Below are positions 10,226-10,425 of a stretch of 64,000 bases of DNA, piece by piece. Numbering within the stretch: position 1 is the stretch's first letter; every line of letters starts with the position of its first letter. Made by a program: the position numbers and the translations under genes. Location: NCBI RefSeq assembly GCF_009931435.1, contig NZ_CP043414.1; one strand, given 5' to 3'. Source of the DNA: Escherichia coli. Lineage in GTDB: Bacteria > Pseudomonadota > Gammaproteobacteria > Enterobacterales > Enterobacteriaceae. The notes under the pieces are model-generated. The model worked only from the letters and a program-made list of their open reading frames with translations, did not search any database and had not been told where the DNA came from.

Positions 10226-10247
10226 AAGGGCCGCGAAAGCGGCCCTT
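10226..10247 (+). repeat. stem-loop AAGGGCCGC-GAAA-GCGGCCCTT, copy 1 (no T-tract)
   Basis: This 22-bp sequence is identical to 10400-10421. It lies 21 nt after the tktA stop. Confidence 0.9.
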
Positions 10248-10277
10248 CAGATTATTGGCAAAGTGTGCGTTGTTCAT

Positions 10278-10377
10278 GTCGGATGCGGCGTGAACGCCTT
10301 ATCCGACCTACAAGATCGTGCAAATTCAATATATTGCAGGAAGTATGTAAGCCTGATAAGCGTAGCGCATCAGGCAG
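10278..10377. repeat. BIME-1 type REP pair
   Basis: It consists of GTCGGATGCGGCGTGAACGCCTTATCCGACCTAC and TGTAAGCCTGATAAGCGTAGCGCATCAGGCAG in inverted orientation. They are separated by an AT-rich spacer (tgcaaattcaatatattgca), as in IHF-site-containing RIP/BIME-1 elements. Confidence 0.9.
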
Positions 10378-10399
10378 TTTTGCCTTTGCCATCAGTCTC

Positions 10400-10425
10400 A
10401 AGGGCCGCGAAAGCGGCCCTTTTTT
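10400..10425 (+). terminator. stem-loop copy 2 plus T-tract, probable tktA rho-independent terminator
   Basis: The same 22-bp hairpin is followed by TTTTT. The stop codon of the convergent SPFH gene (10424-10426) lies in the T-tract. Confidence 0.75.

Follow-up and report, generated by a model that had tools for sequence, protein, structure and literature searches.

How repetitive extragenic palindromes (REPs) and the bacterial interspersed mosaic elements (BIMEs) multiply has been an open question for about 40 years. The BIME-1 (RIP/RIB) family is known from papers by Gilson in 1991, Oppenheim in 1993, Boccard and Prentki in 1993, and Bachellier in 1994 and 1997. BIME-1 is described as a y REP and a z1 REP split by a conserved long linker, frequently with a site for the integration host factor (IHF) (PMC3333891, available sections). 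The subject here is a 152-bp element located just 3′ of the transketolase gene tktA in a 64,000-nucleotide stretch of an Escherichia coli genome (assembly GCF_009931435.1, contig NZ_CP043414.1; this whole stretch is called the window below). The element resembles the published family in its Y REP, its long IHF-type linker (L), its inverted Z1 REP, its position at the 3′ end of a transcription unit, its size (about 140–150 bp in the family) and its presence/absence variation among natural isolates (PMC3333891 and PMC1187871, available sections), and, judging by its sequence, it is a member of BIME-1. The family description in those sections differs from what is seen here in two respects: it mentions neither flanking repeats of a terminator hairpin nor outer arms (A and B) serving as terminal inverted repeats that adjoin a target duplication. 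The two hairpins that bracket the tktA element are probably such a duplication, made when the BIME-1 inserted at a terminator stem-loop and comprising the whole of that stem-loop.

The elements of the REPIN/RAYT system (RAYT, REP-associated tyrosine transposase) are, like BIME-1, non-autonomous inverted REP doublets with a spacer, which fold into hairpins or cloverleaves and form tandem arrays that include flanking sequence. According to the available sections of that literature, they use IS200/IS605-type single-strand chemistry and have neither terminal inverted repeats nor target repeats, whereas the BIME-1 described here has arm-like inverted ends and long repeats. The canonical IS200/IS605 mechanism makes no target repeats according to the available text of PMC3333891 and PMC2817692, in agreement with the initial annotation of the window (made by a model from the sequence alone), which expected no duplication from this chemistry. 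E. coli TnpA_REP is described in the accessible sources as cutting on both sides of the REP palindrome, and the available part of PMC3333891 places the E. coli RAYT gene between yafL and fhiA, i.e. outside the window. Bacterial miniature inverted-repeat transposable elements (MITEs), such as Correia, ERIC/IRU and RUP, are also small and non-coding, with inverted ends, direct target repeats and long stem-loop folds (PMC3184786, available sections), but their duplications are short and of a fixed length set by the parent insertion sequence, whereas the repeats around BIME-1 vary between 14 and 37 nt and equal the secondary structure of the target. A parent insertion sequence sharing the ends of BIME-1 was not identified, no search aimed at one having been made. 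By its own statement, one report did not look at flanking DNA in detail; it described REP dimers inside palindromes in other phyla, a different arrangement (Di Nocera, 2013). No hairpin duplication flanking BIME-1 was found in the accessible parts of the literature searched, which did not include the primary papers of the 1990s (Gilson, 1991; Boccard and Prentki, 1993; Bachellier, 1997); there is a real possibility, though a somewhat doubtful one, that papers of that time already recorded such repeats at individual loci.

At tktA, the 22-mer AAGGGCCGCGAAAGCGGCCCTT occurs at positions 10226–10247 and again at 10400–10421, with 0 mismatches between the copies; no third copy was found in the window when up to three mismatches were allowed, and two matches were obtained in 0 of 100 shuffles of the window. 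The GAAA loop reads the same way in the two copies, which makes the repeat direct. A GC-rich stem-loop with an immediate T run is found at the distal copy and at the single copy of the empty alleles described below but not at the proximal copy, and a terminator scan reported the distal hairpin and not the proximal one. A complete BIME-1 (10248–10399) lies between the hairpins, adjoining both directly. The initial annotation had described the identical hairpins, the T-tract at the distal copy only, and the intervening 152 bp as a REP pair with an AT-rich spacer and partly inverted arms, and all of this was borne out, the arms being partly complementary. The ends of the element, CAGATTGCTGACAAA and GAGACTGATGACAAA (the latter given as the reverse complement of the right end), form imperfect inverted repeats, with agreement at 12 of the first 15 consensus positions by eye, and hairpin plus arm can be read as 38-nt inverted arms with 79% complementarity. 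As single-stranded DNA, the unit folds much better than its shuffled versions (z = −6.95), into a predicted cloverleaf composed of the two flanking hairpins, a stem formed by the A and B arms, and Y, L and Z1 hairpins. The Y REP aligns with those of the other two copies in the window and with about 100 copies from other genomes. The Z REP is of the short Z1 type; a longer, Z2-like form occurs separately at 51754–51788. The L-linker sequence AAATTCAATATATTGCA is conserved among BIME-1 copies, and it differs at one position from what we take to be the IHF consensus, WATCAANNNNTTR, which makes it a predicted IHF site. The tktA BIME-1 is extragenic, between the convergent tktA and a prohibitin-family gene, and is present there as a single unit. 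The RefSeq annotation of the K-12 genome (NC_000913) lists no repeat features for the tktA region.

A similarity search with the tktA unit revealed two further BIME-1 copies in the window, at fbaA and gcvP, both in the opposite orientation. All three copies are bracketed by direct repeats, and the hairpin is a different one in each case, as the initial annotation had pointed out for these two loci. The gcvP hairpin copies are identical (20/20), with T residues after the distal copy only. At fbaA the two copies are about 90% identical and span the hairpin, the T-tract and 12 further bases. The duplicated bases beyond this hairpin (24050–24068 and 24218–24235; CGCCAAAAGCAA) resemble the inner B arm, at about 14 of 18 positions by eye; the fbaA junction may either reflect microhomology or preserve what is left of an earlier tandem unit.

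The same arrangement was sought at BIME-1 loci elsewhere, using one genome per species and a strict L-linker pattern. The scan yielded 98 stretches with 98 usable, oriented instances, from Escherichia species, Shigella, Pseudocitrobacter, one further Enterobacteriaceae genome and records labelled Enterobacter hormaechei. When orthologues were clustered, 49 locus clusters were obtained. Flanking direct repeats with a score of at least 12 were present in 16 of the 49, a conservative count, since one cluster of 14 merges several distinct loci. Among the 24 loci with both termini intact, 12 reached this score and 16 a score of at least 9. Corresponding frequencies at a score of at least 12 were 0.13% when left and right flanks were taken from different loci, and 0.3% at random positions with the same spacing in the same DNA. 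A profile search added further full-length copies that depart from the strict linker pattern and are also flanked by repeats (e.g. record L065, with a 22-nt hairpin repeat); the many weak opposite-strand matches in this search were set aside, the element being quasi-palindromic. Flanking repeats of the kind seen at tktA are thus a feature of many BIME-1 copies, and the scan and the empty alleles together lend support to the insertion reading of the initial annotation, which had called for both. Against the published descriptions, insertion without target duplication, which characterizes REPINs, does not hold for the 12 of 24 intact loci in which hairpin-length direct repeats adjoin the element, and of the MITE hallmarks BIME-1 has (imperfect) terminal inverted repeats but no short target duplication of fixed length.

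The geometry of the repeats is consistent from locus to locus. The element termini are conserved in 21 repeat-bearing loci (5′ CAGATTGCTGACAAAG, 3′ GTTTGTCATCAGTCTC), and the repeats abut them, with offsets of about 0 in most repeat-bearing loci and larger in a few. Repeat length is variable (14–31 nt in the scanned set, 37 nt at fbaA), and the repeat nearly matches a perfect stem-loop in extent, leaving no more than 2 nt outside on either side at 10 of the 16 loci with a score of 12 or more. In most loci the A and T runs lie outside the repeat pair. The suggestion in the initial annotation that the element arrived between the stem and the T-tract does not hold everywhere, since at fbaA the repeat of about 37 nt includes the T-tract. 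Since the palindromic hairpin copies together with the arms can also be read as a 38-nt inverted repeat, we considered whether there had been any duplication event, the hairpin pair being instead the product of chance, a pair of pre-existing tandem terminators, or part of the element itself as an extended terminal inverted repeat. We regard this as highly improbable. A chance origin was rejected on the basis of the shuffles and the two null distributions; pre-existing tandem terminators are at odds with the single hairpin of empty alleles; and an extended terminal inverted repeat was rejected because the loops point the same way and, at 13 of 16 loci, the copies score higher as direct than as inverted repeats. 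A hairpin travelling with the element was also rejected, as hairpins differ among loci (hence the low cross-locus null) and the tktA hairpin occurs at a median of one place per genome. Locus-specific, direct repeats thus adjoin both conserved ends of the element at many independent sites, and we infer from this that they arose at insertion. The positions of the features of the three loci are collected in Table 1.

Table 1. Positions in the window of the features of the tktA, fbaA and gcvP loci.
Feature	Position	Strand	Basis or remark
tktA (transketolase) coding sequence	8184..10205	+	Open reading frame list; RefSeq label "tkt: transketolase" in matching E. coli records; element just 3′
tktA proximal hairpin copy, 9-bp stem, GAAA loop	10226..10247	+	Followed by CAGATT, without T residues; read as left target duplication
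BIME-1 A arm, left inverted-repeat-like end, starts CAGATTATTGGCAAAG	10248..10277	+	Conservation reaches the junction in all three window copies
Y-type REP palindrome	10278..10311	+	Inverted repeat; alignment of window copies
L linker, AT-rich, contains AAATTCAATATATTGCA	10312..10346	+	Alignment
Z1-type REP, inverted relative to Y, GTAAGCCTGATAAGCGTAGCGCATCAGGC	10347..10375	+	Alignment, fold
BIME-1 B arm, right terminal end, finishes TTTGCCATCAGTCTC	10376..10399	+	Alignment, 3′ consensus
tktA distal hairpin copy (10400–10421) and T run (10420–10425)	10400..10425	+	Predicted intrinsic terminator of tktA; read as right target duplication
Prohibitin-family gene, convergent to tktA	10424..11332	-	Stop codon overlaps the T run; not downstream of tktA in K-12
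fbaA first flanking repeat: hairpin, T7 and CGCCAAAAGCAA	24031..24068	+	Repeat comparison
fbaA BIME-1, outer B arm missing	24069..24199	-	Similarity search, alignment
fbaA second flanking repeat	24200..24235	+	Repeat comparison; single copy in the KE55 empty allele
gcvP first hairpin copy, AAAGGCGCTTCGGCGCCTTT	48115..48134	+	Repeat comparison
gcvP BIME-1	48135..48287	-	Similarity search, alignment
gcvP second hairpin copy (48288–48307), then A and T7 run	48288..48315	+	Repeat comparison

The states of these loci among strains provide further insight. Of 5,426 complete E. coli genomes, 1,715 have the junction between tktA and the prohibitin-family gene, and an even sample of 60 of these was surveyed; in K-12 the DNA downstream of tktA is different and has a hairpin of its own. 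Empty alleles, found in 14 of the 60, are exactly 174 bp shorter and have one hairpin followed by T7, as in APEC O2-211 and FDAARGOS_1259. In double alleles (5 of 60), two BIME-1 and three hairpins form a tandem array with a 174-bp unit, as in 2021CK-01784 (L002:577–1024); they are fairly common, at about 8% of the genomes with the locus as estimated from this 60-row sample. Two rows are single-filled with both junction pieces reported. The remaining 39 match the left flank and hairpin only; they were taken as filled because SE15 is filled and an SE15-like form is expected in the listed ST131, ST95 and ATCC 25922 records. SE15 itself has an older-looking filled form, in which the proximal loop is mutated and Z1 is partly deleted. 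The two BIME-1 units of the 2021CK-01784 allele differ at a few positions, so the doubling was either not very recent or occurred between diverged alleles. Empty tktA alleles are found on several haplotypes.

At fbaA, about 27 of 39 sampled rows, K-12 included, are filled and about 12 are shorter by 167 bp; in the empty allele of KE55 a 38-nt segment is present in single copy. A cross-species pair, found by chance, shows the same relationship: E. whittamii is filled between two 25-nt hairpin copies, and E. coli ECDA1023 shares these flanks but has a single hairpin. The comparison with empty sites proposed in the initial annotation thus gave a single hairpin wherever an empty allele was found, followed by the T-tract at tktA and fbaA. 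The gcvP locus is more complex. The allele seen in the window, whose BIME-1 has its B arm proximal and is followed by a second hairpin, is rare there (8 genomes). K-12 (L104:2903–3168) has one copy of the gcvP hairpin, followed by a remnant of the A arm and another insert, which looks like what we take to be a boxC repeat. In O157 and enterotoxigenic strains (L106, L107:944–1108), which lack ygfF, one hairpin precedes a degenerate BIME-1 that runs the opposite way, and a double allele with three hairpins and two BIME-1 occurs in Escherichia sp. E1V33 (L066). The opposite orientations of BIME-1 at the gcvP hairpin suggest that the same hairpin has been used repeatedly; the differences between strains reflect either repeated hits on one hairpin or inversion between palindromic repeats.

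Further tandem arrays of hairpin-plus-BIME units were found by the profile search (L050, L068). Together with the double alleles of tktA and gcvP, they are the evidence that could be cited for a different history, in which a BIME-1 came to lie beside a hairpin without any duplication, the unit was then tandemly duplicated by unequal crossing-over, and one BIME was later deleted. Such a history is very improbable: at no fewer than 16 independent loci it requires a pair of illegitimate events, both with exact boundaries, the first tandem duplication would have no recombination substrate unless the repeat were already there, and the arrays result more simply from flanking repeats. Once made by a target duplication, the direct repeats would render the unit unstable. 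Recombination or slippage between them would either remove the BIME-1 precisely together with one hairpin, leaving an empty allele, or add a unit, giving three hairpins and two BIME-1; the flanking direct repeats would explain both the precise losses of 174 and 167 bp and the tandem gains. The abstract of the 1997 paper by Bachellier reportedly speaks of "excisions of a whole BIME-1". A different kind of array was observed in Escherichia sp. MOD1-EC7003 (L054:1334–1940 and L091), in which long tandem arrays of the BIME-1 core (Y, L and Z1; profile positions 21–133) have a spacing of about 115 nt; these have neither A nor B arms and no intervening hairpins, and represent a mode of amplification unlike that of the hairpin-plus-element tandems.

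Several observations weigh against a target duplication made at insertion. The filled and empty states of tktA are both present on each of two right-flank haplotype groups, so an attempt to polarize the tktA event from flanking single-nucleotide polymorphisms failed and the direction, gain or loss, cannot be assigned. An empty allele would equally be left by precise deletion between the repeats, and no insertion event has been polarized. Recurrent loss or recombination is likely, recurrent precise loss being the most economical reading of the haplotype pattern, and some of the empty tktA alleles are probably secondary losses. About half of the intact copies and most truncated ones have no clear repeat; at many of these loci there is a hairpin at one end only, the other arm being truncated or replaced (L055, L077, L093, L082, L022, L023, L012). 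Decay or secondary deletion has to be invoked for such loci. One loss of a repeat is directly visible, in a Shigella record (L021) without the right hairpin copy that E. coli (L039) has kept at the same locus. Across loci, the correlation between repeat quality and closeness of the element to the consensus was not significant (rho 0.23, p 0.12), so a simple decay with age is not demonstrated, and the strict linker pattern used to find loci may favour young copies. The repeats at fbaA (about 37 nt) and at loci of the L010 type continue beyond the stem-loop, through and past the T-tract; a rule based purely on the feet of the hairpin does not predict this. Finally, we know of no enzyme that duplicates a whole target hairpin, and the sole candidate chemistry is described as making no target repeats.

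The variable length of the repeats (14–37 nt) is typical of template switching, in which a nascent strand stalled at the terminator hairpin would copy a BIME-1 elsewhere, return upstream of the hairpin and copy it again; neither an element-specific enzyme nor a staggered cut would be required. Hairpins are generally known to be obstacles to replication, and the likeness of CGCCAAAAGCAA at fbaA to the inner B arm could be the microhomology used for a switch. However, about 20 loci show sharp, conserved element ends at the junction, microhomology of the target with the termini of the element is not visible in most loci, and the boundaries of the repeats follow the feet of the stem rather than varying freely. 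We therefore consider template switching unlikely, although less so than the histories discussed above.

If the repeats are target duplications, the target was probably recognized as an extruded hairpin or cruciform, with each of its two strands most likely opened at a different foot of the hairpin. The duplicated length would then be set by the local stem-loop and would usually leave out the T-tract. Filling in of the two single-stranded, hairpin-length overhangs would leave the insert with a copy of the stem-loop at either end. Bending at the central IHF-type site would bring the two arms of the 152-bp element together. Candidate enzymes are a REP-associated tyrosine transposase acting on both strands of the cruciform, or another transposase. 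Two-strand action of TnpA_REP on a REP-like or extruded target hairpin is conceivable, because this enzyme cuts on both sides of the REP palindrome. A specific version, an unrecognized structure-directed mode with strand joinings at both feet of the extruded terminator hairpin or cruciform, perhaps made by a REP-associated Y1 nuclease on both strands with the help of IHF bending, can be put forward only tentatively, and we see it as a rather unlikely account of the details. With the T-tract usually outside the duplication, only the distal hairpin is still a terminator, and the tktA transcript is expected to extend across the BIME-1 and end beyond it.

Other systems share parts of this geometry. 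In spacer integration by Cas1–Cas2 with IHF in the E. coli type I-E CRISPR system, a partly palindromic unit of roughly 28 bp is attacked at its two borders, once on each strand, so that the whole unit ends up duplicated around the insert; bending by IHF takes part. This process provides what would be the closest analogy in geometry, and in geometry only: there are neither cas genes nor a CRISPR repeat in the BIME-1 case, and the insert is 152 bp long, versus 33 bp for a spacer. Long and variable target duplications, well over 10 bp, are known from the IS1634/IS1549 group of the IS4 family; these are autonomous insertion sequences of Mycoplasma and Mycobacterium, however, their repeats are not tied to hairpins, and their sequences are unrelated. 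Class C group II introns, and IS1397 and ISKpn1, which insert into REP loops, also use intergenic stem-loops as targets and so spare genes, but they produce no duplication or one of 3–4 bp, and the whole stem-loop is not duplicated (in part, PMC1525189).

Other observations were made in the window and in the records retrieved. The interval between tktA and cmtB (10424–11652, minus strand) has two genes that are not in K-12, encoding the 302-aa prohibitin-family protein and, upstream, a 107-aa open reading frame; the prohibitin-family gene contains three imperfect 33-nt (11-codon) repeats at 10557–10675. A REP cluster at 51752–51907 is BIME-2-like or atypical: its two Z2-like palindromes, 97% identical and spaced 119 nt apart, enclose a Y REP. 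Matches of at least 99% identity are few among the 5,426 complete E. coli genomes (14 records at tktA, 6 at gcvP), most being 94–97% identical; the scarcity of such intergenic matches indicates that the E. coli lineage of the window is an uncommon one. Strains R32_14_1F (goat) and N96 (Tibetan pig) gave the closest records. Exact matches to the BIME-1 linker on contigs of 261–277 nt labelled Leadbetterella, Desulfosporosinus and Methylobacterium (L051, L076, L092), from phyla unrelated to Escherichia, are most likely due to Escherichia contamination of the assemblies; the title of L051 gives a low coverage ("cov") of 0.48. The Enterobacter hormaechei B56 and B17-3 records (L048, L052, L059, L071, L086) have displayed flanks, about 45 nt on each side, that are the same as or near-identical to those of E. 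coli loci (L059 and L071 match L042, L061 and L078; L048 and L086 match L020), and these records look mislabelled or contain E. coli sequence.

The finding extends from one locus to a property of the BIME-1 family, tempered by the fact that single events cannot be given a direction and by a possible prior description; if the literature of the 1990s already contained flanking repeats at single loci, what is new would be how general they are, the statistics and the rule equating the repeat with the hairpin. The current model of a Y1 single-strand transposase predicts no footprint, so that past insertions can be neither recognized nor counted. A hairpin-length duplication would, if this reading is true, be the footprint that marks each BIME-1 as an insertion, and intrinsic terminators would be the preferred target. 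This would account for the presence of BIME-1 at the 3′ ends of transcription units and for its clean presence, absence or doubling among strains, and it would impose a concrete geometric requirement on any enzyme proposed. As the proximal hairpin loses its T-tract, the mRNA upstream should gain a REP-containing 3′ extension. Should the structure-directed mode also prove true, the REP doublets of E. coli would count as real transposons that leave a legible footprint, with terminators as dedicated sites where they can land safely.

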